From contig JAGIQG010000040.1 of NCBI GenBank assembly GCA_024679065.1, positions 4,030,001-4,094,000 on the forward strand: DNA of 64,000 nucleotides, read 5' to 3'. Below, piece after piece: positions 308 through 59,574 of the stretch. This stretch comes from Sphyrna mokarran (taxonomy: Eukaryota). The notes below the pieces were generated by a model. The model was not told the DNA's origin. It saw only the letters and a list, made by a program, of their open reading frames with translations, and searched no databases. The position numbers and the translations under genes were made by a program. The stretch's first letter is position 1. Every line of letters starts with the position of its first letter.

Positions 308-444
308 TCATCTCACCTTCACCAGAGTGACTGCGGTGCTGTAGAAAATGCTCAGGAAGAACAGGAAGATGAATGTGGAAGCTGTTGTCCAGCTGTTGCT
401 GTTATCATCCTCATTGTCGTTAATCCAGCTGGGGTCGGTGGAGT
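308..444 (-). CDS. IGHM: IgM heavy-chain transmembrane exon
   Basis: Acceptor ctgcag at 450-445; translates (D)STDPSWINDNEDDNSNSWTTASTFIFLFFLSIFYSTAVTLVK, the conserved Ig TM motif; followed by GTGAGATGA (GT donor at 316-315, or read-through V-R-stop). Confidence 0.93.
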
Positions 445-899
445 CTGCAGAAGGGAGGCCAGGAAATGAAATTAGATTACTTTATTTATCCATGGAATCT
501 TACTGTTATTTTTCTTTCCCCGTTCTTCTACATGAGCAGTTAATTCATTATCTTGTATAATTTTCAATGTATATCTACTGTTAAATTCAGGACACTCAGT
601 AACCGATCTCCGCAAATATTTTCGCACCTGATCTTTATTTGCATTCCTTGGACAGTCCATGTCAGAAGCATTGAAGATATTTTCTTGAGTGTCTGTTCAT
701 TTTTGAATTGTTTGTCACTATCCCTTATTGAAGAACGTTATGATTGATCACGTTCACTGATCAATGATTGTTTTCACAGATGGTTACTGATCTGTAAACT
801 GTGAATCCTGCTGTTTAAGAGCTGGAATGCAATTTCTGATCTTTTCTCATTGATAGTGGAAATAGTTAGTAGATCATTGGCTTGAATTCAGTTTCTCAA

Positions 900-2309
900 C
901 ATATTTATCGGTGCAATTTGCGTTTGTGTGCGTATGCATGAGCACCTCGTGGCCTGCATTAACTTTTGGTCCTGCGTTAATGTGTGTGCATGAGGGTTAA
1001 TGAAAGTGTTCATTTGCCTGTGCTTGTCATTTATGTAGTTGTGTGTCTGCGTCTGTGTACATTTTATTCTGCTGATATCGTGGCAGAATGTTCTTATTGT
1101 GTGAAGTCATTTAGTAATTATTAAGTAAATTAGTTACTAATGCCACTTACAGTGTGTGCATGTGATCATGCCTATTTTAATGTGTTAATTTCTGTCACAC
1201 GAATATGGTTTCCTTCCCAATCTCTGTGTGTCTGTTCCTCCGTCTGTTTGTGTGCATGTCTATTAACATGTTAGTGTATGTATATCTGTGTTGATGGCGC
1301 TTCAGAACGATGTGTTGATGTATGTTTGTGTTTCCATGTGTAGCAATGTGTGCTTATAGTGTTCTGTATGACCATGCGTATTTGGGTATAAAAAATTTGA
1401 CTCTCTGACCAACTACATGCAATCTGTTAATGTGTTTATATGTATTTTCCATGTTTGAGTGTTCATGTGTAGAACATTTCGTGTCTCTGTATCTGTATTC
1501 CTGTCAGCGTGAATTTCTGATAACATGTACTTATCTGAGTGTATGTGTATGTTTGTATAGGTATGTGGATCTGCGTGCATGTGCATCTGTCTGTAATGTG
1601 AATATGCATGTACCTGTTTGAGCTTGGTTCTATGTACCTATTCACGTATGTTTATGTTTGTGTGTACTTGTGTGTTTGCATTTCCATATGCGTGTGTATG
1701 TTTTTGTACATATTTGATTATTTGTGTGCATGTTGTTTTTCTGCCTGTTTGTACAAGTGCACGTTAATGTGTATGCGTGTGGTATGTACGTGTGTATCTG
1801 TGTGCAAGTGTATGCATTTGTGTGTGTGTACAAGTGCATGTTAATGTGTGCACGTGTGTGTGTGTAAATGTGCGCATATGCTGAGAGAGAGAAAGAATGT
1901 AGATGTTCCTTTGTACATTTCTGCATGGATGTATTTGTGTCTGTGCATATTTGTGTATGTGTATATTTTTGATCGCGTATGTGTTGTCCATGAGTGTACC
2001 TGTGTGAGCGTCCTTTTTTGAGTTCGTTTGTGCATATCTTGCATGTACTTATGGTGTGTGAATGCATGCATGTTTCTCTGTGTTTTATGTATATATTTAT
2101 GTTTGTTATGCATTTGTGTGCTTCTGTGTTTGTATTTGAATGTGCTTGCCCGTTTTTCTGTATATGTATGTGTGTGGCGGAGGGGGCGGTGCGGGGATGC
2201 AGGGTATGTCGTTTGTGTGTACTACATGTGACTTTCTGTATTTGTTGCATAAGTGTGAGTATATGTATTTGTGCCTGTATTTGTGCATTTGTGTCGATGT
2301 GTGCGTGCA

Positions 2310-2345
<36 letters not shown>

Positions 2346-2430
2346 CGCAAGCGCAAGCGCAAGCGCTCACGCCTATGTGTGCATTTATAATTATGGCACT
2401 TCTGTGTAGTATTATTAGCGTGTGTATTTT
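900..2430. repeat. Degenerate (TG)n low-complexity tract ending in (TG)n(CG)n
   Basis: Imperfect TG/TATG/TGCA repeats; pure alternating run at ~2310-2348; explains the Cys/Val- and His/Thr-rich spurious ORFs. Confidence 0.9.
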
Positions 2431-3476
2431 TTACCTGTTGCTCCAAGTCTCACTGCAATCATTAACTGAACATGATCCAAACAACATGAGCAATGGACTA
2501 TATTTTGGGCGTTTGCTGCATGAATTTCTTTTATGCGAGTGCCATGGTGATATCAGGAGAGCGAATGAAATAATTCATTTATGCATCTCAGAAACCTCAG
2601 GGATAGATCAGTAAAAATCGGAGAGGATTCTATTATTTGTTTCAATTTGTATTATGGGAAATCAGTGTCAGCACATGATTAACAGGATCAAGAGTGTTGA
2701 AACATTATGTTTAAATTATGTTGCATAGCATATATGTGTTAAATGATTAAGGTAATGATATTTCCTAGAGCAAGGATATTCATCTAGAGCAAGGAGACCG
2801 GAAGCTAATTTGGATTGTTGGATACTTATATTGATAGCCATCCACTTCCAAACACTTGGGAAGAGGGAGGAGAGTGAGCTCATTGTTTCCCTCTCTCCAC
2901 CTGGTGAAGCAATGTCCCTCATGGTTCTAACCACTGAGGAGGTGGAGATACAAAGGATTAAACAATGATGTTTCTTCTCTTTACATTGAGGAAACGGTAG
3001 TACACGGGTTAGCTGTTGCCCCTCCCCTCTCTTGTAGGGTGAGTAGGAATCCGGTATATTAACAATTTCACTCTCCCTCTCTCTCATGGGGCGATTGTTG
3101 CTCCATGTTTCTCACTTCAGTTTTGAGTGGGTTTGGTGCAGCAGCTTAAAGTTGGCATCAAAGGTAAAGGCATAGACAATGAGAGCAGCAAGAACACCGA
3201 GGTCTAACTGCTGTGTTTGTCAGAAATGTTGAAATTGTTGGATTTTTCCTCGGCGGGAGGAAAGTCAATGAAGTTATTTTGCAGAATCCTGCAATGAATG
3301 TTCTGCACTCAGTCTCTAACCCAGAGTGTATCTGAGCAGGGTACACTGGTTCAATAAAACTTGGGTTCGAGACCTGAAAATACCTGACTCAAACCAAAGA
3401 TATCTAATAGAAGTAAAACTGAAAAAAAAATCACTAAAGCAATTGGGTATTTCACTTATCATTAGAGGAAAGACAT

Positions 3477-3490
3477 TTTATTCTTTTATT
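3477..3490 (-). terminator. Polyadenylation signals of the secreted mu mRNA
   Basis: Two AATAAA on the minus strand (tttatt at 3477-3482 and 3485-3490), 20-30 nt after the Cmu4 stop codon. Confidence 0.75.
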
Positions 3491-3508
3491 GAAGTTTTTT
3501 AATGTAAC

Positions 3509-3900
3509 TCAATCGCACGGCTGAACGATGTTCATCAGTGCACGGGAAATGTTCACAAAACTGGGTTTACCGCTGGATTTGTCAACTGTTCTGCGCATGG
3601 TCTTCAAGGGAATGGCTTCATGTCCCACCACACAAGAGTAAGAAGAGCCGCTGGACCATTCCTCTGCTGCAATGGATAACAGGCTGTACATGAAGAAGGA
3701 GTTATTGCCGTTTTCCGCCATCACCTCGGTGTTCCTATACTTCATGGGATTCACCAGCTTGTCGTTGACGGTCCACTTGATGAAGATCTCTCGTGGGGAG
3801 AAGCCTCTCACTAAACAGCTGAGGGAGACGAATCTCTGAGCGGAGATTTCTTCTGCCCAGGGCAGGAGGACAGAGACAGACGGTTTCTGCGGATTTGGAT
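3509..3900 (-). CDS. IGHM: IgM Cmu4 exon plus secretory tailpiece
   Basis: Acceptor ctgcag at 3906-3901; [38 protein letters not shown]; internal donor G|gtaaac at 3571/3570 for splicing to TM; tail [20 protein letters not shown] with penultimate Cys. Confidence 0.96.
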
Positions 3901-4398
3901 CTGCAGAAAATGTACAATAAATTTCAATTAACTTGCGAAATTGGAGACAATGAAATCGCTGGCTGGATATCAGAAAAATGTGCTTCACTTTCGATTTTAA
4001 ACGTTTCCATTTTTGACTTCCAACTTGGAAGAGGGGTGGACACAATCGTTTTCTCAAATAACTCAGGGGTTGGACTGGGAAGTTTCAGAAAGTATGCAGC
4101 ACAGAATCAGGCTACTCGGCTAGAATGATCTGTTTTTTTTAGTTTTCTGGTTTTTATGCTCCACATTAGGCTGCTCCCTCCATATTCGATCTAAACACAA
4201 CAAATCGCCTTCAGTTCACTTTTCATTCATCAGCACTTCAAATTTCCCCGTAAAAATATCGACAGTCTGAGAGTGTTTAGTTAGTAGGTTTTCCACTCAG
4301 GGGAGACCATTAATGCACTGAATACTAAATATTGACCAATACACTTCCACTGGAAATAGACACAGTAACACATTTATTGCTTCAATCTCTCAACTCAC

Positions 4399-4707
4399 CT
4401 GTTTCCTTGCGAATGGATTTTCTTAACGGAGTCGGAAGATCTTGATGGCTCACCACGCAGTCAAACACAGTTCCACTCAGCCAGGATTGGGTGGAGATGT
4501 TTAAGTTGCTGACCACGCTGTCACCGTCCTCCCCAGGCGTTTTTGCAATCTCTGATTTCAGATAATTCCTGTCTTGGATCCAAGACACGTTGACTCCATG
4601 AGGAGAATTGGAAATGATGCAGGTTAAGGTCACGGTCGCCTCCAGTAAGACCTGCTCTATTGGAGGTGGCTGTATCCTCACTGTGGAATCATGGCAGTGG
4701 GAAGAAT
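4399..4707 (-). CDS. IGHM: IgM Cmu3 exon
   Basis: AG/GT-bounded 309-nt phase-1 exon; [36 protein letters not shown]. Confidence 0.96.
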
Positions 4708-5139
4708 CTGTAAATGACAAATGAAAATCAACCTAGTTCCCCCTCAGAAGCAGGACAGCAATCTTCAGCCCGAAAGAGACGAACTCACCTTCAATGTATC
4801 AAGCTCTAATTATCGCCTTTCAAATTCTATGGCGGATGGAAAACTAGGTTGCTCTTTGAAATTATTCCCTTTATTAAAGTATTGTAGCAGCGATATCATT
4901 TTCATGTATTAGCATTCCCAAACAAATGCACCATCCTGAACTCAGGAAAAAGAAGTACTGGCCTTTGGTTTATAAACAGGATGGATGCACTTTCCAATAT
5001 TTCACCCCTATGCTGTGACCTGTGAAACAATCCGACATCTACTGTCTCTCCAAATCTTACTCGCTGTCTCAGGAAAAAGCTGTCATCAAGGCCAACTTGC
5101 TGACTATATCACTTCAAAGTGGAAGGGAGCACTCGTTCA

Positions 5140-5435
5140 AGGGGAGGCAGTGGCATGATGGTGTTGTCAATGGACTTGTAAACTGGACCAACACTCTGGG
5201 GACAAGGATTTGATTCTCACCACTGCAAATATGAAATTTGAATTCTGTGAAAACCTATAATTAAAGGTCAAAAGATCATCGTGAAGCCATTGTTGTAAAA
5301 CACTTCCTGGTTCACAAATGCTCTTTAGCAAAGTAAATCTGCTGTCTTTATCTGGCCTGGCATGCATGTCACTCCAAATCCACAGCAACGTGATTGACAT
5401 TTAAGTGCCCTAAGGAATGGGAAATAAATGCATAT
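5140..5435 (+). mobile_element. SINE remnant (DeuSINE/SacSINE-like)
   Basis: Similar to the copy at ~25630-25950; tRNA-like head and LINE-like tail. Confidence 0.55.
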
Positions 5436-5620
5436 CTCATGGAGATAAAAAAAACAAAAATTGTTTTTGTGATGAAATTCTGAATAATGCATTGCCGTGA
5501 TGCAGCAAACTACATGACAATAACTTAGAAATTGTTCTCTGCTTTGTACTAACTTTAATAGATCCCTATTTTCGATTAACATTAAAATGATATATTTTGT
5601 CCTCGGTTAGAGTCTCTTAC

Positions 5621-5926
5621 CCAGAGTTGCGCTGATGTTCTGACTCTGGGTGAATCCTTGATGAGTGACCTGGCAGGTATAGACCGTTTTACTGAACCAA
5701 TCCCGAGCGGAGACTGTCAGCCGACTGCTGGCCGAGACATTTCCGTTCACTTCACAGGCGGGAGAGTTGACAATTCCTGAATCCGTGGGTTGTCCATTCT
5801 TCAGCCACTTCACCGTCATTGACTTTGGCTGGAAATCAATTATTGAACAGACGATGGTTGCAAATTTTCTGCTTATCATTTCTTCATTGGAACTCACGGT
5901 GAGGATAACAGTTGGGCTGATGTTGC
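5621..5926 (-). CDS. IGHM: IgM Cmu2 exon
   Basis: 306-nt phase-1 exon; [34 protein letters not shown]. Confidence 0.96.
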
Positions 5927-6029
5927 CTTTAACAAACACATGTTTAGACGTTACTTGATGATTCAATTGACAACAATTAAAACTAGTTCTTTTATTTTAG
6001 CACCGTAGCGGCTGATCTGAGAATTATAC

Positions 6030-6620
6030 CATGATTTGGTTGAATTAGTAGGGAAATGGCGATTGGAATTCAACCGTCAAAAGTGTCACCAAATGCATTT
6101 GGTAAGGGGAAAAAAGTAAGGGAATAGTCAACAAAATTGGAAGTTGAGAGGGATTGAGAAAATGCAAAACCTTAGAGTGCATGTCCACATTTCCTTGTAG
6201 ATGATAGGGCAGCTGGACAAGTTCATCAAGAAAGCATATCGGATTAGTTCCTCTGTTATGTGAGGTATAGAATATAAAAACAATGATGCAATGTTGGAGA
6301 TGTATAAAACACTAGTTAGGCTACGTTTCGAGTTTTTATACAGTTCTAGTCACCATGTTACAGAAATGATGTAATTACGCTGGAAAGAAATGAGGTTTAC
6401 AAGAATGTTGCCAAGGCCTGAAAATTGCAGCCACGGGGCGAGATTGGATAGGCAGAAGTTGGTCTCCTCAGAGGAAGAGGAGGCTGAGGCGTGACGTAGA
6501 TGTGGTTGACAAAATTATAAGGGACGTAGGCAGAAATGATTCATTCCCCACGTGGAGTGCTCTGTTACCAGGTAGCGCAGTCATTAAAAGGTATCTTGTT
6601 CTGCGTCTCAAGTGTTTTAA
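6030..6620 (+). mobile_element. Decayed CR1 LINE fragment (end of RT)
   Basis: Degenerate similarity to the LYKTLVRP..FWSP region of the younger CR1 copies. Confidence 0.7.
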
Positions 6621-6891
6621 CTGCAATGTTAATGAGGAAGGACTGGTAAATGAGCTTAAAATTTCTGGCCAGTTTATTTGTTGTCCCTGTTGGCCAGCAC
6701 AGACATGATGGCCTCATTCTACGCAGTAACATTTCCATTGTTCTTTGCTTCTCAGCAACTTTTCGGTCAGTAGACATCACCTGGATTTTGCATAATTCAA
6801 TTTTTTTCAGAATGCTACAAGTCAGTTATAACTAAGGTATTATACAGTTCAATCACAGCGTCCTGTCTTGCCCAGGTTCCATAACACTTAC

Positions 6892-7191
6892 ATTGCATGC
6901 TGATGCTCTTGACTGAACCGCTGTGTCGAACCTCACAGTCGATTTTGCTGCATCCTCCCTCTGACTTGGTGATGGTTAACTGGCTGCTCAGGGTATAGGT
7001 TCCCTTCGTGTTTCTCACTGATGGGTAAGTCTTAAACCCAGTGGTGATCGGCTGTCCATTTTTCTTCCAAGCGAGACTGGTAATTTCTGGAGAATAGTCT
7101 ATCGCCAAACAGCCATAGATGACGGAGCCGTCGGTATTGTGGCGCCCACAGGAGGGGATCAAGCTGTAGAGAGTGGGTGGAGACGGTGTCG
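6892..7191 (-). CDS. IGHM: IgM Cmu1 exon
   Basis: 300-nt phase-1 exon; [40 protein letters not shown]; the early Cys that can pair with light chain is present. Confidence 0.96.
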
Positions 7192-16166: not shown

Positions 16167-16208
16167 CTACAGTCACCATGGTCCCTTGTCCCCAATAGTC
16201 AAAGTATG
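16167..16208 (-). CDS. IGHJ: IgH J segment (YFDYWGQGTMVTV)
   Basis: WGXG motif; donor gtaaga at 16166; 23-RSS with heptamer 16209-16215 and nonamer GGTTATTGT 16239-16247. Confidence 0.96.
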
Positions 16209-16597
16209 CACAGTGTCACATTCCTTTGGTTGGGTCATACAATAACCGTCCCTGCACAAAATAGGCAGAAAAGCAGCCATTATTTTAAATATTCATAAAC
16301 CAAAGGAAAATCAATTAATATTCATGAAATTACTACTGTATTTGCATTTACAGTTCTCTCTACATAAATAACCTTAATGTTTTATATTTCACAGAGGATC
16401 ACATGATCAAGTTATTGAAAACACCAACTGATAATCAAATATTTATCAGGCATTTTCCATATTAATTCTCGCTATTTGTGTAGTGCTGTGACAAAAATAA
16501 TACAGCATGGTAAATAATGTTGGATTGTAAATCAGAGCACTGACCAGCCTCGGTCAATTAGTGCTGAAGGGTTTTTGCATTGACAGCAACAGTTGTG

Positions 16598-16609
16598 CTA
16601 ACCATTTAT
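16598..16609 (-). other. IgH D2 segment (ATAAATGGTTAG), 12/12 RSS
   Basis: 5' RSS: heptamer 16610-16616, 12-nt spacer, nonamer 16629-16637; 3' RSS: CACAACT 16591-16597, 12-nt spacer, GCAAAAACC 16570-16578. Confidence 0.9.
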
Positions 16610-16989
16610 CACAGTGAGACACAGCATGACAAATACTGAGTCTGACTACTAGCTGTAAAATACAGAGATTTAGTTTCACTTCTCTATCAAAAATTTGATC
16701 CTGTCTTTACTGAGAGTGAATATGTGAGATATTTCAGTTTGTGCAGGTCTTTATACCCATAAAAAGGATAGGAAAACTTTCAAACCCTTTGTGTAGTTTT
16801 AGCATTTCAGTCAACACAGATTTTTATGGAAAGATTCTTATACCTTTTCACAAACTAATATTACTTCTACATATTATTTAATTAAAGCCTCATTTACTTT
16901 GAAAATCCTGCTGTGGTACAGATTACCAATTTGAGCAATCTCTTTCCCTGAGGTTTTTGAATGAGGATGTCGCTGTGCTCAGCACTGTG

Positions 16990-17002
16990 ACCCCCCATCT
17001 AT
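16990..17002 (-). other. IgH D1 segment (ATAGATGGGGGGT), 12/22 RSS
   Basis: 5' RSS: heptamer 17003-17009, 12-nt spacer, nonamer 17022-17030; 3' RSS: CACAGTG 16983-16989, 22-nt spacer, TCAAAAACC 16952-16960. Confidence 0.93.
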
Positions 17003-17441
17003 CACAGTGACACACACGCGGACAAAAACTGCACTCATTCTCTGTTCAGTGCTGCCACTCAATATTCACTTCAAATAGACGATTATTCCTTATGTAATTT
17101 ACACTTCATGCAACTGATTACAAAACACAATCTACAAACATCTCCTGCAATCATCAGAAATATAAAAACGAGCATTATATCCAGCTGTGCAATTGCTGAA
17201 ACTGTTAACAGTAAATATAAACAGAGTGAAAATTTCAGCCCATTAGGTCTGTGTGTTTTCTTGGTTTAATGTTTAATTTTCACTAAGTTGGGTTTGTCAG
17301 AAGCAGGTTGTGCTTTGGTTCTGATCACTGTCGTTAGTGTTATATTTAAAACAGGTACTGAACTTCAGGTTATGATGGAAGTTGTTGAGATCCACCTCGA
17401 CCTGTTTTTGTCCGCGTCCATCCCTGGTTCCTCTTGCTGTG

Positions 17442-17740
17442 GTCTCTTGCACAGTAATAGATGGCGGTGTCTTCGATCTTCAGCCTCGTCATCTCCAAAG
17501 AGAAAGTGTTGTTTGAAGTGTTTTTGGACACAGTAAATCGATCTTTAATTGCTGGGGCATAGTCGTTGTTGGATGAACTATAGTACCAGAGCAACCACTC
17601 CAGCCCCTGTCCGGGAACCTGTCGGACCCAGTGCATGTAAGCGCTGCCAACATCGAAGCTGCTGGTTTTACAGGTTAGTTTCAGGGAGCCTCCGGGACGC
17701 CCAGTCGCTGCCTCTGGCTGAGTCAATACAATCTGGACAC
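17442..17740 (-). CDS. IGHV: IgM VH exon, open frame
   Basis: [50 protein letters not shown]; RSS CACAGCA (17435-17441), 23-nt spacer, ACAAAAACA (17403-17411). Confidence 0.97.
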
Positions 17741-17870
17741 CTGTAAAAATAAATTTTAAACACCGAGGATTAATCTTGGTGAAATGATTGCTGACTCTGG
17801 AACATTCCAGAAATAGACTAACATGGAGACAGTAACAGTGAAATTCCTGGACAATAAAAAAATTACTCAC

Positions 17871-17928
17871 CGGATAAGAAAGTCAGCAACAAACTGAGAG
17901 AAATCGCCGACCTCATCTTTCTGGTCAT
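17871..17928 (-). CDS. IGHV: VH leader exon ([19 protein letters not shown])
   Basis: Hydrophobic signal peptide, donor gtgagt at 17870; alternative ATG at 17916. Confidence 0.92.
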
Positions 17929-17939
17929 TTGAGGGAAAT

Positions 17940-22221: not shown

Positions 22222-24274
22222 TATAACATAGAGCATAAACATTACAGCACAGACATGCCCTTCGGCTTCGAGGTTGTACCAACCAAAATAAAATCACTGC
22301 CCTTCCAACTAAACCATTCCCTTCNNNNNNNNNNNNNNNNNNNNNNNNNNNNNNNNNNNNNNNNNNNNNNNNNNNNNNNNNNNNNNNNNNNNNNNNNNNN
22401 NNNNNNNNNNNNNNNCAAACTAAACCATTCCCTTCTCTTCCATATACTTATCAACTAACCTCTTAAACGCCACCAAACTTGGCGCATCTACAACAGCTGC
22501 AGGCAGGGCATTCCACTCCCTAATCACTCTTTGAGTAAAGAACCAACCTCTGATATCCGTCCTATAACTCATACCCCTTAATTTAAAGCTGTGTCCCCTC
22601 GTGCTAGCTTTCTCCATCCTAGGAAAAAGGCTATCACTGTCCACCCTATCTAAAACTCTAATCATCTTATATGTTTCGATTAGGTCCCCTCTTAGCCGCC
22701 TCCTTTATAACGAAAACAACCTCAAATCCCTCAGCCTCTCTTCATAAGACCTGCCCTCCATACCAGGCAACATCCTGGTAAACCTCCTCTGTACCCTCTC
22801 CAATGCCTCCACATCTTTCTTATAATGCGGGGACCAGAACTGCACACAATACTCCAAGTGCGGACGCACTAGAGTTTTGTACAGTTGCAACATGACGTTG
22901 CGGCTCCGAAATTCAATCCCCCTACCAATAAAAGCTAAGACTCCATATGCCTTCTTAACAACTTTATCCACTTGACTGCCTACTTTCAGGGATCTATTGA
23001 CACATACACCAAGAGCCTTCTGTTCCTCAACACTATTAAGCGCCCTACCATTAGCCCTATACTCTACACATTTATTGTTCCTGCCAAAGTGCATTACCTC
23101 ACACTTTTCCACATTAAACTCCATTTGCCACCTCTCGGCCCAGCTCTGAAACTTGTCCAAGTCACTCTGTAAACTATAACACCCCTCTTCACTATCAACC
23201 ACTCCACCAACTTTAGTGTCATCTGCAAATTTACTGATCCATCCCTCAATACCCTCATCCAGATCATTTATAAAAATTACAAACAGCAGGGGCCCCCAAA
23301 ACAGACCCCTGAGGTACACCACTTGTCACCGAACTCCACGATGAATATCTCCCATCAACCACCACCCTCTGTCTTCTATCTGCCAGCCAATTTCTAATCC
23401 AATTAGCTAAAGCACCCTCTATTCCACACATCTGCATTTTCTGTAGAAGTCTTCCATGGGCCACCTTATCAAAAGCCTTACTAAAGTCCATATATACTAC
23501 ATCAACCGCCTTACCCCCATCCACCTCTCTGGTCACTTTCTCAAAAAACTCAATGAGGTAGTAAGGCATGACCTACCCTTCACGAAACCATGCTGACTAT
23601 CCCCAATCAATTCATTTCTCTCTAAATAACTATAAATCCTATCCTAATAATTCTCTCCAATACTTTGCCCACAACAGAAGTAAGACTCACTGGCCTATAA
23701 TTCCCTGGAAGGTCTCTCTTCCCCTTCTTGAACAACGGGACCACATTCGCTATCCTTCAGTCCTCCGGAACCACACCCGTAACCAACGAGGACCTGAAGA
23801 TCAGAGCCAGAGGCTCTGCAATCTCCTCTCTGGCCTCCCAGAGAATCCTAGGGTAAATCCCGTCCGGCCCAGGGGACTTATCCAACTTCAAACCCTCGAG
23901 AATTTCTAACACATCCTCCCTATCTACTACAATACTTCCCAATTTGCAACCCTGTACCTCAGTGTTCTCCATCGCTACATTTCCAGCACTCTGCGTGAAT
24001 ACCGAAGAGAAATATTTATTCAGTACCTCACCAATCTCTTCAGGCTCCACGCACAACTTCCCACTGCTGTCTATGACTGGCCCTAATCTTGCCCTAACCA
24101 ATCTTCTATTCTTAACATATCGAAAGAAAGCTTTAGGATTCTCCTTAATCCTATAAGCCAACATCTTCTCGTGTCCCCTCTTAGCTCTCCTCAATTCACT
24201 TTTTACCTCCTTCCTGGCTAATCTATAGCTATCCATTGCACTAACTGAGCCTTCAAGCCTCATCCTGACATAAA
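22222..24274 (-). mobile_element. Young 5'-truncated CR1 LINE (RT)
   Basis: ORFs 22420-24263 are nearly identical to the RT at 41760-43442 (FADDTK; VYMDFSKAFDKV). Confidence 0.95.
22325..22415. other. Assembly gap (N run)
   Basis: 91 Ns; both flanks carry aactaaaccattcccttc. Confidence 0.99.
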
Positions 24275-24757: not shown

Positions 24758-24910
24758 TAGTACAAACACTGTCCAGGGGCCTGACAGCCACAGACATCCA
24801 GTATCTGCCAATAATGAATGCGCTGGCTTTACAGCTCACTCTCAGGGAGTCTCAGCGACGCCTTGTTTCTGCCTCCGGCTGAAGCAACACAACCTCCGAT
24901 TAGATACTTT
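24758..24910 (-). pseudogene. IGHV: IgH VH pseudogene, 5' half
   Basis: *SEVVLLQPEAETRRR*DSLRVSCKASAFIIGRYWM..(frameshift)..QAPGQCL; cut by CR1; its leader intron (25255-25345) matches 17758-17850. Confidence 0.85.
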
Positions 24911-24929
24911 TAAAAATATAAAAGAAAAA

Positions 24930-25250
24930 TATGCAAAAAGAATGCCACGCACCCCGAACATACTCTGTCACCTTTTTCCATCGTGATGATACAAAATCCT
25001 CAGGACATTTACAAACCGAGTCAAAAACAACTTCTCTCCTGCTGCAATCAGACCTTTGAAGGAACCTACCTCGCATTACGTTGATCTTTTTCTACACCCT
25101 AATTATGACTGTAACATTACATTCTGCACTCTCTACCTCCCTTCCTTTTGTATGATATGCTCTGTATAGTGCGCAAGAAAGAATAACTTTCACTGTGTGC
25201 TGATATGCATGATAATAATAAATCAAATTAAATCAAATCAAATCAAATTA
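24930..25250 (+). mobile_element. LINE 3' fragment with (AAATC)n tail, inserted in the pseudo-VH intron
   Basis: Interrupts intron homology; aataaatcaaat.. tail. Confidence 0.55.
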
Positions 25251-29500: not shown

Positions 29501-29532
29501 AAATTAAAAGTTAAATACATTTATTTTTATGG

Positions 29533-36947: not shown

Positions 36948-38549
36948 CTGTGTTGTAAACAAAATAGAAGAATAGAAGAGAAAATCATTAAAGTATTGAA
37001 GAGTCAGGAAGCAAACATGATGAGAGATCAGAATTGGCAATCCTAGTTGAAGCACACTCTGATTCACTGATTAAAAATATCCCTCCTAATATGCAGCATT
37101 TTTCCAATACTGTACTGAACTGTCAGGGAAAAAATACAAATTGAATGTTAATCTCACTGTATGATGAATCGGCTACAGGAAATACAATCAGTTAGTGTCT
37201 TGTTCCATCAATAGAGAAGAGAGAAGACGCCATCAAGTCATTAGCAAATCCGATGGCCATTAATATTAAATATATATAAGTATTAATATACCAGAAATGC
37301 GTCGCACGATGTTCATTATACAAAAATTCAAGTCCCTCACAACGCGAGAAGAAAACTGGAAATACATTTCGTTTAAAATGCAAGAACATTCTTTGAATTG
37401 AAAATAGTTTGGGACTCCACGTTGACAATTCATTGAAACGATTGAAAAAATGGTTCAGAGTAGTGAATAAAATATCTCCTACTTGCAATGTAAACGTCAT
37501 GATTCAGTCAGTAGAACTGTCATATGGTAGTGGACTTTAGATCTATTCCAAGACTTCGGCACAGATGGGGTTTTACAATGGTGATGCTTTCATCTCCGGA
37601 CTGAAAACAATAATCTGAGTCCTGTCTAAATAAAATGCTAAAAGAAATTCAATACCAACTTAACAGAGGATTGTCTTTTTCGTTGCAAACAACAAAACAA
37701 TAAAAACCACAAAAAAGCACATCAGGATAAATTTGTGACTATTCACCGACAGTCTCAACAATATAACAGAGCTACAATTAGAACATGGCAATGTTCTCAC
37801 AGTCAATGTGACAAACCACACCAGAACTTACTTTACTATGAGGATAGTGTTATTGTAGTGCAGCCACGTTACAGCATGAACAACAAAATGGTTCAACTAT
37901 AACATGAGCTGGGAATAGTAAGAAAGCGAAGTAAGTTTGAAGTGAAGAAATTACCCTGGTTAAGGTAAGATAGTAAATTGCTAAAGAGGGTAAATTATGT
38001 GGACAATGTATAAACATCATATTGGTAAAAGCGAGAAACAACACATTAAAATGCGATTTCTTCAATTCATATATAATCATGAGTCCCACATCGTTAATCA
38101 TTTCGGGAAATTTGCTCCTTACATTTTAAATAATAGACATTACATGCGATACACTTTGTCATTCACAATATTGATTTCATCTGCTGCCCTTCGCCAGACT
38201 GCCAGAATAATGATACTCAATGGGTTTCCACTCGCCCAGTCTTGCATTATTTTTTCTTTTCACATTCAATGAGAGCACAACGAATCGTATTTCAGCCATG
38301 CCGAGTAATTATGCCAGGCAAAGGGAAAAATGTAATGATTAAAATAGAGGATTAAAACTGTCCTGGTGTGGAAGGTGAAAATCCAGTAAAATAGGACAAA
38401 TCACAGCAGGTAAGAAGAAAATTGTCAAATTAACTGAGAAAAAATGTCCCACAATATCAGTACCGTAGAGAAGCATTTTGGGGAAAAATAGAACTGCGAG
38501 AGGGGGAAGCAATGATTCTCATAATGAATAATTAGTCATTAGATTTTAC

Positions 38550-47546: not shown

Positions 47547-47619
47547 GCCCGGCTAGCTCAGTCGGTAGAGCATGAGACTCTTAACCTCAGGGTCGTGGGT
47601 TCGAGCCCCACGTTGGGCG
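47547..47619 (+). tRNA. tRNA-Lys(CTT) with a T39C variant
   Basis: GCCCGGCTAGCTCAGTCGGTAGAGCATGAGACTCTTAACCTCAGGGTCGTGGGTTCGAGCCCCACGTTGGGCG; intact A and B boxes; TTTT about 14 nt downstream. Confidence 0.92.
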
Positions 47620-48038
47620 CTGTTATTCTAAAATTTTGCTGCTTTCCTGGGTGAACTCCATTTCTCTGGAAGTGTCGCTGTCAATGTTGTTTTGTTAATA
47701 CCTCTATTTTCTGGATGGAACGTGCCTCCGCTCCTTTGGAAGTCGGACAGTTTAGTGCTTAATTCAGTGAGAATGTATTTTTTAATTATTTAGCACCAGA
47801 TTTGAACCCAAATCGGAAAATATTTATGTCAATGGAAAAAAGAATCTGCTCCATTATTAGCCAGATTTTATGTTGTATCATCATCTCTATCGTCAGAGTT
47901 TTGTAACCTATCACTGTCCTTTTACTGTTCTTCATTATCTGAACATGACATTTTCAACACAACGCAAAATGGTATATCTGCCGTACTGACACACATAACT
48001 AATTAAATAATAGTTTTTGCGTAACAATAAGTATTAAA

Positions 48039-48110
48039 TTTCCTAACTGGGAATCGATCCCAGGCCGCAAAGGTAAAAGCACTGAACTCAAACCGCTAGG
48101 CCACAAGGGA
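48039..48110 (-). pseudogene. tRNA-Glu(TTC)-derived pseudogene
   Basis: TCCCTTGTGGCCTAGCGGTTTGAGTTCAGTGCTTTTACCTTTGCGGCCTGGGATCGATTCCCAGTTAGGAAA; many stem mismatches. Confidence 0.75.
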
Positions 48111-49922
48111 AGTTACTGCATCTGCTTTCAAAAATCTAATTGATGTGTCAAACTTTTGCCTTTGATTTTTCCTTTCAGACGTTGTTTTACACCAGAAACA
48201 GGGATTTTGCTTCAAATTGTCATTTTTTCGGCATGAGAAAATTGACTTCTTAACCAATGAAATCATGGATACCGATAACTAGAACATGAAATGACCAGTA
48301 AAGTCAAATAAGATACTGATGTACAGCTTCCAATTTCCAAGCCTCAGCGCCTTCATCACTGCAAATTCTAAAAAAAACCGAGACTGTTGGCTAAAAACAT
48401 CACGGTAGAGAAGGGACAATACAGGATTGGTCTCAAAAAGGCAATACTGAGTTGTTATATGTATTAATTGTTTGCACATTCGCTTCTACAACTGAATAAT
48501 CGCGGCAAGACAAGATAGACATCCGTCACTGAAAGAAATTGACAGATTCTATTTTAAACACTTCCATGTCACATTTCTTTCTGTTCCTGTTGCTGCCTCT
48601 GCGACAGCTGCCTCTGGCTTTGCTAGGGCTCCTTGATGCTACATTCGGTCGAATGCAGCCTTGATGTCAGCGGCTGTCACTCTCACCTCTCCTCTGGAAT
48701 TCAGCACTTTCGTCCGTGTTTGAACCAGGGCTGAGTGGCCCTCGCGAGACTTAAACTGGGCGTCACTGAGCAGGTTATTGCTGAGCAGGTGCTGCTGAAT
48801 TGCACTGGTGATGACCCTTCCATCACTTTACAAAGATCGAGAGTAGACTGATTTAGCAGTAATTGGCTGGGTTAGATTTGTCCGGCTTTTTTTTGTCAAG
48901 TTGGGTAGATGCCAATGTTGCAACTGTACTAGAAGAGCTTGGCTTGGGTAGTGGCAAATTCTGGAGCAAAAGCCTTGAATACTATTGCAGGAATAATATC
49001 AAGGCCCATTGCCTTTACAGTATCCAGTGTCTCCGACCATTCCTTGATACCACGTGGTATGAATCGAATTGGCTGGAATCTGCCATCTGAGATCCTGGGA
49101 ACCAATGGAGGAGCCCGAGATGGTTCATCCACTCAACACTCAATGCCACAGAAACTTCAGCTTTATTTTTTTGAATGGGTGTGCTGGGCTCCTCCATCAT
49201 TTAAGATGGGGGTATTTTTGGAGTATCCTCCTCGAGTGAGTTGTTTAATTGACCATCAACATTCTCGCTTGAATGTGGATGGGCTGTAGATCTTAGGTCT
49301 CATCCGTTGATAGTCGGATCATTCCAGTCAGGGAATGAAGATATTTTGTTTTTTTGCAGAAGACGAGTTAAATGAAATTGGAATCATTTTCTGATCGAAA
49401 ACATGAGTGATATTGGTGTCTCTGACTCTGGAGTTCGTCACAACAAAGCAGAGATGAAGGTCTTCTTTCACGGATGGGTCACTTGGTGGCGCAGTGACTC
49501 CTTCACTGAAGGACTTTTTACTCAAATACAACCCAGATGGGACGAAAGGGAAATACCTGTCTGGGAAAGGGGGAAAAGCGTGTAATAAAAAATGAAACAG
49601 TGTCGAAGGGCTTTGAAGAAAGGAGTTCGGCAAGTTCATAATTTGCTCATTTTTCATTCAAAATTTATTAAAAGTTTCAGAGAATATTTTACAGAAAAGT
49701 TTATTTAAACGATAACGAAAGAGAATACAACAATTGATCTTCACATTGAGAAGACAATCCATACGCTCTGAACAGTCCAACATATATACAACTCTAACAG
49801 ACACAAGAAAGAATAAGCAGGAGCTCAACACATTGGGAAATGAACAACTGTGAATTAGAAACGCGAAAGGGTACTTATTTATACACGAAATTGCAAGTAC
49901 AGGGAAACTAGTAACTTCAATT

Positions 49923-50135
49923 ACATAGAACATAGAACATTACAGCGCAGAACAGGCCCTTCGGCCTTCGATGTTACGCCGACCAATTCGGAACAAGCAG
50001 CGACCCTCTAACCTAAACCATTCCCCTTTCATCCATAAACTTATTTACTAACCTCTTAAACACCACCAAACTTGGCGCATCTACAGCTGACGCAGGCAAG
50101 GCATTCCATACTCTTACCACCCTCTGGGTAAAGAA
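49923..50135 (-). mobile_element. Short CR1 3' end
   Basis: catagaacatagaacattacagcgcagaacaggccc.. is similar to the tails of the young CR1 copies. Confidence 0.85.
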
Positions 50136-50459
50136 CATAGCAACAAAAATTACCTCGTTCATTTCACACTGAAACACCGTCCACGATTGTCTCAGTTGCA
50201 GATTCAGAATGATAAACAGAATTTTACTGTTGCAGTCAACAACAGCAGATATTGCATTTGTGTTATAGAAAGAGCCTGCATTAGCTGAGGGAAATCTACA
50301 GCATCCAAAATTCAGCCCGTCGCTTGATCTGTAAAAAGAGATAAAATAAAAAAGAAGACGTTTTTGATCTGGGGAATTAATGTTAGTGTTTTAATCAGTG
50401 AAACATTTAGTCATTTTTCAAGCCGTTTCTGTCAAACCGTTCACTATAAGTGGATTGAA

Positions 50460-50596
50460 TCATCTTATCTTCACCAGACGGACTGCGGTGCTGTAGAAAA
50501 TGCTCCCGAAGGTCAGAATGATGAATGTGGAAGCAGTTGCCCAGATGTTGCCGTTATCATCTTCATTGTCTTCAATCCAGATACGGTCGGTGGAGA
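50460..50596 (-). pseudogene. Orphan IgH transmembrane exon
   Basis: STDRIWIEDNEDDNGNIWATASTFIILTFGSIFYSTAVRLVKIR*; acceptor AG changed to GG, donor GT changed to AT; flanks 50164-50640 align with window 1-490; no CH exons nearby. Confidence 0.88.
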
Positions 50597-51355
50597 CCAG
50601 AGAATGTAGACAAGAAAATAGAATTAAGTGGTTTTATTTATCCGAGTTTTTTTTTTAGTTCTCGGTTTCTTTGCGTGTATCCTTCAGTTTCATTAAGTTT
50701 TAATCTTTCTTTCTGTGTATCTGTGTAAATTTCCAGCATTCAGGCTTTATTTTTAAGGCCGGATTATTTCATGAGGAAAGGTTAGAGAGACAAGGTTTAT
50801 ATCCACCGGAATTCAGAAAAAGAGTAGGCTACTTGATTGATATGCATAAAATACAAAGGGATCTTGACAAGGTGGATATGAAGACGATAGTTTCTCTTCT
50901 GCGTGAATCTATAATTAGGTACCACTGTTTCAAAATAGGGATTCGCCCATTTAAAATAACACTGCACCACAGCCTCCTCTAATGTATATCTGTATTTATA
51001 AATACTGGTCAGTAGCAATGTCCTTCCTTGGTGCAAATAACAATGGGAAACGAAACATAAACTTTTTAACTAGTAGCTGCTCTCTCTCTCTCTCTCTCTT
51101 TCACTGATCAACCTTTCAGTCTGATGGGATTCTGCTGTGTTTTGTCTCAGCCGATCCTGGATTGAATTGGGTGACAGTTTGATCCGAGGTTAATGTGGTT
51201 TCCTCTGGGCGTGTGTCAGAGCGGCTAACAGCGTCGCTGCTCAATCTGGCTGTTACATACTGCGGCTCTCTACACAAACCTCAACAGACTAGAGCACCCA
51301 ATGATAGCTGCAAAGCAGTTTTTGTACGGGGGTGAGACTGCTTTCTATCACTGTG

Positions 51356-51922
51356 AGTCTGAAAGCGCAGTACTAGTGGCCAGCGTCAGTCAGCTGCAGG
51401 TTCGAGGTGGTTCACCTAGTTAATTTAGCCGAGGTCTGGAGATCAGCAGAGAAATTGGGTCCAAAACCTTCCCCTCTGTCTTGTGTATCTAAGGAGGTTT
51501 TCCATATAATGAACTGCAAATCGTTCTGTGACTGCTGTCTATACCAGTATAAGATATATTCACTTGCTGTAGTGCTGTAGGTACATCGGATAGTCACCGT
51601 TTCACCTTCAATCCCTTCTAAAGACTGCGGTTGAGAAACAGAATCTCCATCACTCGGATCTGTAACGTGTTCAAGAAGAAGAAAAAAAATCTAAGTATTG
51701 GACGTGCTGCTGAAATAATATTAACACTTTATATTCATCGCGACATAAACTGGAGTTACGAAATAAAAGCAAATGGTAGTGAAAATACACAGCAGGGTCA
51801 AGAACCACCACTGGAGAGAAGCAGAGCTAAAGGTTCAGATCGCGGTAACATTTAACCAGATTGGAGTCATTCTTACTGATAAGAAACAGCCCGAACACAA
51901 TGCAGATGGTGAGGAACTCCAT
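51356..51922 (-). pseudogene. TCR alpha/delta V pseudogene (leader 51877-51922, V exon 51356-51659)
   Basis: MEFLTICIVFGLFLI / GDSVSQPQS..ETVTIRCTYSTTAS..LYWYRQ..FSADLQTS..R*TTSNLQLTDAGH*YCAFR; near-consensus RSS CACAGTG (51349-51355), 23-nt spacer, ACAAAAACT (51317-51325). Confidence 0.9.
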
Positions 51923-54075: not shown

Positions 54076-54083
54076 AAAAACAT

Positions 54084-55235: not shown

Positions 55236-55332
55236 AAATTTCCAGCATTAACTCAATGTCTGAATGATCAGTACCTGTTCCCTGATCTCTCTCCACCCCA
55301 CGATATTTAATGCCTTCTGTGTTTTGTTACAG

Positions 55333-55624
55333 GGATAAACAGTGTTTCAAGATCGAACTAAATTAAGCATTCTGGAAGGACAGAGCATATTGTTGGACTG
55401 TAATTATTCGACAGTTGCTTCTCAAACTATATTCTTGTACATCCGCTATCCCCGACAAGTCCTGAGGTATATGATGAAGATATATAGCTTGGGCAATACC
55501 GACAAGTCTCCGGATTTATCGGATAGTTTCTCGGCTGCTTTGCACAAAGCAAACAACAGTTTACTTTAAAAATCACCAGGATTCTTCTGCCTGACCGCGC
55601 CCTGTATTTCTGTGCCATGGAGCC
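55333..55624 (+). pseudogene. TCR alpha/delta V pseudogene
   Basis: VFQDRTKLSILEGQSILLDCNYST..FLY (Trp lost)..FSAALHK (frameshift) TLKI..ALYFCAMEP; RSS CACACTG (55625-55631), 23-nt spacer, ACAAAAGCG. Confidence 0.85.
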
Positions 55625-56821
55625 CACACTGTGCAGAGATATAGCGAGCTCCTCACAAAAGCGCCAGACTGGAAGTTCCGCGTAAAGATCAGCAGAGGGC
55701 GCTCCCGCACGGATAGACAGAAACAATTATTTCGTCTTCACAGGGAGAGTCACAGGATCATAAATGAAATATCAAAACAAAACAGACCACTCAACATGAA
55801 CAGCTATGCCGCAGTTGAGTTTTTAACTTGCAACTATACAAAAAATAGAGTTATATTTCACTCACGCGTAGTTCTTTGACGATATTCCCTTGCCTGTGTG
55901 AATTACTGTATAGCACTTTCCCCATCTTGACTCCCCGTTTCGAGGCCGCTTTACTCAAAGAGTCTACTTTGTAATCTCTATACCGGAGGGAGCGTTAAGG
56001 ACACATTAGTAAGTTAGACAATTCTTTATTAGAGCATTGATAGGGAACGAGAAGCTGCGATGGAAATTGAATTTGAAGAGAGAAATGGCTAAATAGTTAG
56101 CCAACCATCTTACGAAGGAGCAGCGCTCCGAAAGTTTGTGACACCAACTAAAATTGTTGGACTTTAACCTGGTGCTGTGAGACCTCTTACTGTGCCCACC
56201 TCAGTCCAACTCTGGCATCTCCACATCATCGACAAATATTTAGCCAGTAAATGGAAATTTTAAAAAGGGGTAATTTTGGAAGCAGATAGATGATTAGGAA
56301 TAAATGGATAATTGTTTAAGAGCGACAGGAAGTAAGTAAGCGGCCGAACATTCTAACCGTGTGCTGTGAAATATTATGATTCTAAGATAATGAAGTGTTC
56401 TGTTCATGTAGAAAAACAAAAGTGAACAGAACTGATGAAAGAAATTATTCTGTTACATACAGGAAGCAAAGAAATTCGGAAGCAGTGACGGTTCAAGTGG
56501 TCCTTGGTTTGACAAAACCAATTGTTCAGTGGCACCATGAATAACGTCAGATAACAACATCATTTATAGACCATTCGGTGATATTCAGCTCTCCTTCCCC
56601 TGCCCACCATTCAGATTCCCGACCTCGGCTGTAAGTCCAGTCTAGAAATCAGATCCGGATTGATCCTCATTTGCACCTTCATCATCATGAAGGCAAACAC
56701 GCGCAAACACTTGTTTTCAGATACTGCTAGTGTTGTGTGAGTTTATCCACTTATTCAGATGCATTATTTTAACAGTCTGTTAATACCGTGTAGTTTATGA
56801 GTGATTTTGTTCTGTTCACAG

Positions 56822-57093
56822 TCGTTCATGTGAGGAATGAAACTCCCATCCTGAGTCAGTAATGCCTCAGAAAGAGAGACGGGTTGAAATGAACTGCCTG
56901 CTCCCCTTTGTGATACCATGGTCTGGTACAGACAAAAACCGACAGGGGCTCCGCCATTTATCGCCTCCCTTTACGAAGGGAATGTAAACGAATGTAAACA
57001 TACTGTCCTTTGACCAAGTAAAGAATTCAAATCCAGTCTCTATAGATGACAGCGCGGTCCAGGACTCGGGGATGTATCTCTGTGCGAAGCAGA
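56822..57093 (+). pseudogene. Decayed TCR V pseudogene
   Basis: RVEMNC..MVWYRQKPTGAPPFI..AVQDSGMYLCAK, with stops and frameshifts; degenerate heptamer CGCAGTG at 57094-57100; decayed leader at ~56687-56740. Confidence 0.75.
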
Positions 57094-57578
57094 CGCAGTG
57101 AGACGAAGAATGGGGCCGGTTGTAAATATCTTATTAAACACCCTGTCTCCACTGGAATTTTAAATTGGCCCCAAAACAGTACCTTTCAAAATGCCGGTGG
57201 TATTAGAGCTATGACTTTCCCGTGCTTATACTTGAATCTGGATAGAGTCGCAATATCTGACAATTGTCATTACAGATGCAGTGTGTCGAAACATTTTGAG
57301 TAAACTCTCTTGTTCCGTTGTTCCACACACAAAGTAAAGAGAGTCGGGAAAAATAACTGCTTCTCTGATGCCGAGGCAGATGGATAGGCGAGAGAAAAAT
57401 ATCTAAACATGGATGGAAAAAGATGGAAAGGGAGATAATAAGTAGATCGGTAGAGAGAGTCAGAAAGACGGATGGATCGGTAGTCGCATAGATTAGCTAA
57501 TTCTAACCATTTACGGGAACACTTCATTTATTTATTCTTGTATATATCTTTATGTTAGTTTTGTGTTTGGTTTCACAG

Positions 57579-57790
57579 CTGTTTCTTATCACTCAGGCAC
57601 ATTTCAGATTCCGATGAATCTGGTTAAACAAGGACAGACCATCTCTCTTCACCACAATGTTACTGTCGCTGCAAATGACTGTGTATTCTGGTATCGGCAG
57701 TTCAGCGATCAAATTCCCAAGTATACTTTGGTAATGGTGCAGGCGCGTCAGAAAACTGAGATAAAGGATTTTGCATCAATACTAACCAGC
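57579..57790 (+). pseudogene. Truncated TCR V fragment
   Basis: Acceptor tttcacag; VKQGQTISLHHNVT..VFWYRQFSDQIPKY; first Cys lost; no YYC or RSS. Confidence 0.6.
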
Positions 57791-58014
57791 AAATGTTGCA
57801 AAACCAAAATGACAAAGACGGCAGATATAGCGATAACATCAAAGTAATAAAACATATGATAAACTGCAACAATAAAAACCCGCAATACGATGCAGCAACA
57901 TAAACCAGATTGAAAGTCGCTGTTTCACTGATGACGTCCCAAGACCCCATCTTTCGCAAAACCTTGCAGAGCCGTCAGTTTCCCCTGTCACAGGTGACAG
58001 CTGGAGTTACAGGA

Positions 58015-58275
58015 AACGGGACAGTGGTTAACACTGTTACCTCACACACCAGGGACCCGGGTTCGATTCCTGTCCGTGTGACGTTTGGACTTTCTCCCGC
58101 TATCTGCGTGGGTTTCCTCCGAGTGCTCCGGTTTCTTCCCACAGTCCGAAGGACGTTAGCTGCATACTGAATTCTCCGTCAGTGTACCGAATAAGCGCCT
58201 TAGTGTGGCGACTAGGGAATTTTCACTGTAAATTGATTGTGAATGTAAGCCTCATTTGTGAGTAATACATTTTAC
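58015..58275 (+). mobile_element. tRNA-derived SINE (V-SINE/HE1-like)
   Basis: cagtggttaacac..gacccgggttcgattc..gtgggtttcctcc. Confidence 0.75.
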
Positions 58276-58692
58276 TTTCAATATCTGAACGTCTTGACAC
58301 CACCACAAACCACAGCGCATTTAATGCAAGAGATGATATGTAAATTACGGAAGATCTCGAGCAGAAACATTTCTTCTGGACCAGAAACTCTGGATCCATC
58401 TCCACTTCATGACGGCAGAGGATGTGTTCCTTACCCTGACACACAAATTGATGATCTACTTGTACATTCTTCCAATCAGCCGAATGACACGTTAAAAGAA
58501 CGGGGGGGCGGGGGTTCCTGCAAGAGTTATTTTTAGAAATAAAACATTTATTGTAATTAATAGTCTGAGAATTCACCAGGATTTCAGTTTCCATTTCAGA
58601 CTCACTCTGATCACAATGTTTGTCTACCGCTCTATGTTGAGCGAGGTTCTGACAGTTTTTGTACAGACGCAGCCCAGGTCTGTATCTCTGTG

Positions 58693-58990
58693 GGACTCAG
58701 TGCGCAGTAATACACCCCGGAGTCTGCCAGCCCTGTTTTAGACACTTTCAACGGGACGGTGCGGGTTGTATCATTGATCTCTGCTGAAAAACGGTTCCCA
58801 GGAGATCTCCCTGTGTTTCCAAATTTATTTGTTTGGAGCAGATACTCCATGGTCTCGTTGGGATACAGACGGTACCAGAATAGAAAAGGGTTGTTGCTTG
58901 TAGTTGTATAATTACAGAACAATTGAACATCATCTCCTTCAGTGACGGTGACTGCTGTTTTTTGCGAAACAGAATCTCCTTGACAATGCC
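58693..58990 (-). CDS. TCR alpha/delta V exon, open frame
   Basis: GHCQGDSVSQKTAVTVTEGDDVQLFCNY..LFWYR..RFSAEI..LADSGVYYCALSP; RSS CACAGAG (58686-58692), 23-nt spacer, ACAAAAACT (58654-58662). Confidence 0.93.
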
Positions 58991-59522
58991 CTGTTAGAGC
59001 ACAAAATAAATATAAACTAAACAATGCGATTTCACTCTGTTTCCCTCAGAATCTTCCCGTAATCCTGAACAATAATTTTAGAGAGAAATCAAACAGAAGA
59101 ACAAAAGCATATTTTTCACAATTCAGTAGTTGGAACGGGAAGGTATTTATAGTGATAATAAAACTTCTACCGAAAACATTCAGTACCTTCTAACGAAATC
59201 AGTTCCTCCCCTTTAGTCCCTGTAACTGGAGCGGGAAAATGTTCACTGTCTGTATTTGAAAGTCTGGTTATTTTTCAAATCATTTACTGGTACCAGAGAA
59301 ATTTGAATCGCAGCCTAAACTCATCCAATCTCATTCCCTGAGGAAAATGTGCCAACTCCCAACAAACAGTTTTCAGTATTAACACCGAGATCCAAGTACC
59401 TATTCGAGGTTGGGATCAATCCGATCACTCACTCTTAGCCCCTTGCATTGAGTGGACAGCCCGATAGAATGTAATTTGTGGTAATGATGTGCAACACAGA
59501 ATTCAGCAACTTGTGAACTTAC

Positions 59523-59574
59523 CAGTTAAAAGAGCTGCCGCTATGACGATTAAATACAGAGTAACAGGAGACAT
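59523..59574 (-). CDS. Leader exon of the TCR V (MSPVTLYLIVIAAALLT)
   Basis: 52-nt phase-1 exon with donor gtaagt; splices in frame to 58990. Confidence 0.87.

Follow-up and report, generated by a model that had tools for sequence, protein, structure and literature searches.

The window analysed here comprises 64,000 nucleotides of Sphyrna mokarran (scaffold positions 4,030,001–4,094,000) and contains an immunoglobulin M (IgM) cluster, a heavy-chain variable pseudogene (pseudo-VH), an IgM-derived fragment encoding the mu transmembrane (TM) region, and several T-cell receptor (TCR) V segments. The window lies in the interior of an antigen-receptor complex and is probably a mosaic of duplicated and inverted mixed blocks, which carry the pseudo-VH and the mu TM fragment as passengers, two old scars of IgM genes. 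In favour of this reading, both scars recur elsewhere, the mu TM copies form one clade, and the window is paralogous, block by block, to a second gene unit on the same scaffold. An earlier sequence-only reading gave the order as IgM cluster, pseudo-VH, G protein-coupled receptor (GPCR) gene, tRNAs, orphan IgH TM exon and TCR Vs, and every one of these elements is present in that sequence. A chance match is excluded, with E 4e-82 for the TM fragment and, for the segment V58, 51 matches to solved structures at E ≤ 1e-10, mostly named TCR alpha. The features are collected in Table 1; positions are those of the window unless Mb or scaffold positions are given.

The window is inside one of two alpha/delta gene sets, designated units A and B, that look intact at the level of sequence and lie on one scaffold. 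TRDC-A is 161 kb to the left of the window, TRAC-A 0.96 Mb to the left, and TRAC-B 285 kb to the right. Relatives of V58 occur on both sides, at 2.5, 3.3–4.0, 4.1, and 4.9–6.3 Mb among the best 150 of 407 candidates, and TCR V genes are also found to the left of the IgM cluster. Scaffold 3.03–4.39 Mb, read whole, contains 63 V-like matches, 30 of them open with a recombination signal sequence (RSS), and only two gaps. The window had been placed at the edge of a TRA/TRD locus; with TCR V genes on both sides, it is interior. The proposed linkage of IgH with TCR alpha/delta genes is real. TCR J and C genes stand on both sides of the window, and a gap-free stretch of 1.02 Mb (3,030,001–4,052,324) holds TRAC-A, the Jα-A array, a V array, two IgM clusters, TRD-A, more Vs, and the IgM cluster of the window itself.

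The window aligns to unit B at 5.04–5.42 Mb with 72–92% identity. Its right half aligns in inverted orientation, like the TRD pair, to the V block that follows Cδ-B (4.0885–4.0943 versus 5.3107–5.3000 Mb), and the tRNA region is 90% identical. The segment containing the mu TM fragment, V51, and V55 aligns to 5.049–5.055 Mb.

The first scar, the pseudo-VH, returned 36 matches in a DNA search, and 11 sites of pseudo-VH type were examined. At nine of these a VH lies on the same strand 5.7–10.4 kb downstream (eight read as open frames and one as a DNA match only), and at the other two no downstream VH is present in the 10 kb of sequence examined. The stop in framework region 1 (FR1) falls at the same codon in six of the nine translated copies. 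Consistent with an old tandem duplication, the upstream DNA of the pseudo-VH aligns at ~68% to that of the intact VH. Because the pseudo-VH recurs upstream of VH, mostly shares the FR1 stop and has similar upstream DNA, it appears to be part of the IgM cluster template and not a second dead cluster. It would derive from one ancient tandem VH duplication that was inactivated before the clusters multiplied.

The second scar, the mu TM fragment, is 75% identical to the 3′ end of IgM. The IgM-derived part begins ~50 bases before TM1, continues through TM2, and extends up to 0.7 kb beyond. Seven of the 40 matches obtained with the fragment are at least 87% identical, and each follows a V51-family V on the same strand at a distance of 0.65–0.8 kb. 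The resulting V+TM cassette is 85–87% identical over about 2 kb in five paralogs, and the spacer is replaced in a sixth. The seven cassette TMs constitute one clade (100/100) against 14 IgM TMs. A TM leucine found in all 14 IgM rows is replaced by Arg, Trp, or Gly in all seven cassettes. The cassettes also show signs of decay: the TM1 acceptor is lost in one of seven and the donor in two, while TM2 is absent in two and stopless in the other five. Contigs of four other organisms contain pieces that are ~90–92% identical over the TM region, versus ~77% for IgM TMs, with 29–30 of 30 bins covered, which suggests that the fragment predates Sphyrna mokarran. None of the pieces listed from these organisms bridges V and TM. 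The fragment would go back to a single ancient event, either the loss of most of an IgM cluster or the insertion of its 3′ end, beside a V that was later amplified.

The 256 bases from the V51 RSS onward (window 51060–51355) are 94–96% identical among cassettes, versus 86–88% for the V exon and 79% for the intron. A Heterodontus gene model (P0066) includes a similar stretch in translated form. Candidate readings of these bases are a conserved element and gene conversion.

The IgM cluster of the window contains one VH, two D, and one JH segments, with RSSs of 23 / 12-22 / 12-12 / 23, followed by four CH exons and TM exons, the composition of an elasmobranch IgM minicluster. All exons are open with canonical borders, with the sole exception of the TM2 acceptor, which is GA versus AG in 12 of 14 IgM rows; its stop is located one codon later. 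Read-through of TM1 would end VKVR-stop, and the cluster may still be working via such a tail.

The sequence-only reading took the two debris pieces as signs that IgH clusters had repeatedly arisen and decayed locally, with each piece left over from a different IgM cluster that formed and was lost there, at the TRA/TRD edge. IgM clusters do multiply and decay here: the scaffold contains 24 full CH4 matches, six of them within the TCR V range, plus one split copy and one copy with a stop. The TM fragment was also once part of an IgM cluster. However, the window is interior, living clusters have the pseudo-VH as a fixed component on their upstream side, and the seven TM fragments are one clade with common changes. 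Separate decay is thus largely refuted for the two pieces, each of which fits one old event copied with its block, and as an account of them it is improbable. IgM clusters turn over within the antigen-receptor complex, but the pseudo-VH and the TM fragment are not evidence for it. Through repeated duplication and inversion of blocks, IgM clusters and TCR Vs would have become intermingled and the scars multiplied.

Two IgM clusters, at 4.163–4.171 and 5.095–5.103 Mb, are 92% identical over 8 kb with flanks of 70–80%, which suggests recent conversion or copying. A small degenerate CH3-like fragment lies among the unit A Vs at 3.325 Mb.

The five V segments counted earlier are present as TCR V pieces, but they make up only four V genes, of which V58 alone is intact. 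Six paralogs of V51 at 5.05–5.85 Mb have open frames and RSS23, each with a mu TM fragment. The V tree comprises 57 rows; the V57 fragment and unlabelled Vs shorter than 80 aa or with more than two stops were left out. Its controls are the VH-like, NAR, and NAR-supporting segments of this genome, not published TAILV sequences. V58 falls into a clade (99) with a Chiloscyllium protein and the Vs at 5.310 and 5.405 Mb. V51 clusters with the six cassette Vs (98), both 3′ inverted Vs being neighbours of this clade, and its family groups (97) with a Pristiophorus V that is linked to a Cδ-like constant region. V55 groups with the V at 5.055 Mb (97). This phylogeny, which had been proposed as a check, shows V51, V55, and V58 to be of ordinary alpha/delta type, placed with unit B Vs and outside the IgH-type, NAR, and supporting clades. 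V58 has the leader, V-set exon, and RSS23 of a TCR alpha/delta V and is closest to such Vs; V51 and V55 are pseudogenes of such families.

Three other identities were rejected for the window Vs. As TAILV segments, V51, V55, and V58 would belong to the IgH-type clade (99), and they fall outside it. NARTCR-supporting Vδ segments lack a leader exon, carry an extra cysteine in complementarity-determining region 1, and are found after a NAR V-D-J. Both V51 and V58 possess a leader, and the supporting-V clade (100) does not include them. The window Vs are not orphons, being linked to TRA/TRD D, J, and C genes on the same scaffold. Homologue searches with the window Vs were nearly blank, which is weak evidence.

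The alpha/delta genes that surround the window form two units. A J-motif scan finds two long arrays, at 3.080–3.109 and 4.385–4.454 Mb, both on the minus strand, and two short sets, at 3.852–3.861 Mb (plus) and 5.370–5.381 Mb (minus). Two TRAC genes are found, at 3.073–3.112 and 4.378–4.454 Mb with their J arrays. Both possess open Ig, connecting-peptide, and TM exons with AG/GT borders, and in both units the connecting-peptide cysteine and a J array with RSS12 are present. TRAC-A and TRAC-B are 59% identical over 129 residues, and the TRAC-B branch is longer (0.46 versus 0.21). Jα-A contains 26 J segments, 22 of which pass an open-frame and donor filter; in Jα-B all 12 in the 50 kb read pass, and the array has 56 pattern matches overall.

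TRD-A consists of two D sites, four J, C, TM, and a 3′ inverted V, and TRD-B of one D, five J, C, TM, and a 3′ inverted V. In each unit, Dδ is immediately preceded by an IgH-type V (3.8326 and 5.3891 Mb). The two TRD sets are collinear over about 35 kb with 78–85% DNA identity (mostly 82–85%). A Jα array directly after the inverted V and in the orientation of Cδ is found in neither unit. V blocks and IgM clusters stand between the inverted V and Jα in both, and TRD-A is on the strand opposite to Jα-A. Units A and B differ by 15–18% in DNA and their TRAC by 41% in protein, far beyond alleles, and an origin as haplotigs or alleles was rejected on that ground. Mustelus asterias has two TRAC-like proteins that are 78% identical. 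These two, TRAC-A, and TRAC-B group apart from Scyliorhinus (100/99), and the approximately unbiased (AU) test does not discriminate among the possible orthologies of A and B to the Mustelus proteins (p of 0.11, 0.43, and 0.32).

The 91-N gap in the window is flanked by sequences (scaffold 4,049,608–4,052,204 and 4,056,178–4,059,265) that are collinear with a gap-free IgM cluster at 5.085–5.10 Mb, and the join across the gap is therefore supported. The sequence-only reading had named orphon Vs without TCR J and C genes, or a misassembled region, as grounds for abandoning its proposal; neither was found.

Several points weigh against the interpretation of the window as copied blocks with two passenger scars. 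Three of the nine translated pseudo-VH copies are without the common stop, implying more than one lesion history. The V tree comes from a quick search on 99 columns and leaves 18 of 49 forks open, deep ones included. The gap join at scaffold 4,099,039, right of the window, is provided by the assembly only. Within the pairs L005/L006 and L002/L004 the cassettes match completely or almost completely; these may be very recent copies or doubles created by the assembly, so that five TM1 sequences are distinct. TM1 is open in all seven cassettes and keeps both splice sites in five. The TM-core pN/pS of 0.58 in the cassettes versus 0.16 points towards relaxed selection, but the underlying counts (8N:4S versus 6N:9S) do not differ significantly (Fisher p = 0.25). 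Finally, no rearrangement or transcript was seen, and a search of sequencing runs with the intact cassette listed no RNA, a result that is uninformative on expression.

The open TM1 frames, together with the AG and GT intact in five cassettes and the six open Vs, would suit a functional cassette, in which a germline or leader-spliced transcript anchors a short V-type or peptide product via mu TM1. The leader donor and the TM1 acceptor are both of phase 1, and the similarity of the cassette-like TM pieces in the four other organisms points the same way. However, the GT of the heptamer after V is in phase 0, which puts a V-to-TM1 splice there out of frame. No copy retains a working TM2, charged residues have been introduced into the TM, and the window copy is without both splice sites. 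A function of the cassette TM is unlikely on these sequence features, and its use as such an anchor highly improbable. An assembly artefact (mis-scaffolding or an unpurged haplotype) as the source of the doubled locus or of the interleaving has the same low probability. The piece from the pseudo-VH to V58 does lie between two gaps and some unit B copies are identical, but TRAC-A, Jα-A, three IgM clusters, TRD-A, and TCR Vs share one gap-free stretch, the flanks of the in-window gap follow a gap-free paralog, and the two units are too divergent.

The arrangement of the window as part of unit A allows several predictions on rearrangement. The 12/23 rule and the orientation of the RSSs decide between deletional and inversional joining. 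With Jα-A, V58 is predicted to recombine by deletion over about 1 Mb, with the loss of TRD-A and the IgM clusters at 3.50, 3.56, and 4.03 Mb; alternatively, it would join Dδ-A by inversion, having the same direction as the Dδ-A RSS12. V58 is likely unable to form a chromosomal chain with a unit B Jα because it lies 3′ of TRAC-B in the same orientation. The window VH (RSS23) could join Dδ-A (RSS12), ~200 kb away, by inversion, a predicted route to Ig-TCRδ chimeric chains.

Table 1. Features of the window in window coordinates, with strand and details
Feature	Position	Strand	Details
IgM TM1 and TM2	166..444	-	TM1 444-317; TM2 site about 177-166, acceptor GA
IgM CH1-CH4 exons, secretory tail	3509..7191	-	open frames, AG/GT borders
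IgM D1, D2, JH	16167..17040	-	D1 RSS12/22; D2 RSS12 + weak RSS12, as in paralog; JH RSS23
IgM leader, open VH exon, RSS23	17403..17916	-	leader 17916; VH 17740-17442; RSS23 CACAGCA/ACAAAAACA
Assembly gap	22325..22415		91 N, within LINE copy between VH and pseudo-VH
Pseudo-VH with intron remnant	24760..25340	-	stop, truncated; V part about 24795-24920
Rhodopsin-type GPCR, main exon	36040..36984	-	PF00001 (7tm_1)
tRNA-Lys(CTT) and tRNA-Lys(TTT), convergent	47547..48111		at 47547 (+) and 48038 (-)
IgM-derived 3′ fragment (mu TM1/TM2)	49421..50643	-	TM1 50596-50469, acceptor GG, donor AT; TM2 without stop; LINE insert 49923-50139
V51, TCR alpha/delta V pseudogene	51317..51922	-	leader, two stops, intact RSS23
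V55, inverted TCR V pseudogene	55330..55663	+	stop, frameshift, weak RSS23; paralog of open V at 5.055 Mb
V57, two scrambled V fragments	57033..57740	+	3′ piece ahead of 5′ piece
V58, intact TCR alpha/delta V	58654..59574	-	leader, open exon, RSS23; paralog of V at 5.310 Mb

Nine related rhodopsin-type GPCR genes, one with stops, are interspersed with V and IgM genes at 3.82–4.14 Mb of the scaffold. Long interspersed element (LINE) copies with reverse-transcriptase frames occupy 18187–19604, 22416–24273, 30514–32716, 40321–43535, and 60650–63173; three are 94–97% identical and one holds the assembly gap.

Eight further Cδ exons are located at 10.45–12.31 Mb and three on small contigs. The four Cδ clusters that were read each contain a NAR V and a supporting V, a Jδ 0.3–0.4 kb further on, and a Cδ match, with NAR D and J in one and a TM exon in two. 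Judged by this layout, the four clusters, within the region 10.43–12.32 Mb, are NARTCR miniclusters, TCRδ in an Ig-style arrangement. Within unit A, NARTCR-type pairs of NAR V and supporting V are found without a nearby Cδ at 3.998–4.005 Mb (25–32 kb left of the window), 3.899–3.901, 3.397–3.412, and 3.602–3.607 Mb, several of them degenerate. TRBC-like exons on C738 (57.906–57.920 Mb) and C949 (12.686–12.700 Mb) are identical at 73 of 112 residues, each behind four J matches, and a second TCR beta locus is likely. Tentatively, and with somewhat less than even confidence, the genome may combine two complete, diverged alpha/delta loci, two TCR beta loci on separate contigs, and NARTCR miniclusters with private Cδ, such that T cells may form sublineages that differ in their type of constant region and every Vα-Jα deletion in unit A would take out TRD-A together with three IgM clusters.

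The interleaving confirms a published linkage in one more shark. A complete IgM cluster ~200 kb from Dδ on gap-free sequence is a concrete substrate for studying Ig-TCRδ trans-rearrangement. The two scars caution against counting IgH fragments as separate cluster deaths, as each is compatible with one event of which many copies were made. Two intact TRAC genes (59%), two TRBC exons (65%), and cluster-organised TCRδ would open allelic exclusion, chain pairing, and the cluster-to-translocon transition to testing in cartilaginous fish.

An elasmobranch antigen-receptor complex (AgRC) with IgH miniclusters linked to TCR alpha/delta was described by Flajnik et al. 2025 (PMC12227049), and the linkage seen in the window therefore confirms the idea of an ancestral IgH-TCR linkage without extending it. 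In the great white shark, Table S1 of the work lists nine IgM rows that alternate with TCR V rows over about 7 Mb, three pseudo and two without V (PMC12227049). As in S. mokarran, TCR-type V exons lie between IgH clusters, and a great white block of IgM(-), TCR Vs, and IgM(+) resembles the window. Table S1 gives one C-bearing TCR alpha row in each of four species, with TRD 16–80 kb from TRA in catshark and stingray (PMC12227049), whereas S. mokarran has two TRAC/Jα units, each separated by 0.7–0.9 Mb from a TRD unit, with one of them in inverted orientation. The table is derived from NCBI gene models and does not resolve the pseudo-VH, the V+TM cassette, or similar passengers. Ig-TCR linkage has also been noted in the elephant shark (PMC3964593).

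The nurse shark has TAILV and Ig-TCRδ trans-rearrangement, as related in PMC12227049 and PMC6795676. Similarly, IgH-type Vs stand directly upstream of Dδ in both units here, and the RSS23 of the window VH fits the Dδ-A RSS12. However, none of the TCR-side Vs of the window is IgH-like, and its VH sits in a complete IgM cluster. The NARTCR system, outlined in the same sources, has a counterpart in the pairs of NAR V and supporting V near the window and elsewhere in unit A. It differs in that the window Vs have leaders and lie outside the supporting clade, while the pairs at 10.4–12.3 Mb own Jδ and Cδ.

A full-text literature search returned no report of a duplicated shark TRA/TRD, NARTCR clusters with their own Cδ, an upstream pseudo-VH, or a V+TM cassette; four central papers and part of the PMC10322711 supplements (a 302-species TRA survey) lay outside the search and may contain earlier reports of duplicated TRAC or clustered NARTCR. 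Duplicated TRA or TRA/D loci are described in newts, alligator, and polyploid fishes, and TCR locus duplication is called rare, in the sections seen of PMC12698447. As in the present case, these loci comprise two diverged TRAC genes, and a separate J array goes with each. In S. mokarran, by contrast, one scaffold carries both units, each includes a TRD, and IgM clusters are interspersed; those sections name no shark case. The interleaving of IgM and TCR V genes is already published for other sharks, and the doubled, rearranged TRA/TRD setting is what differs here.

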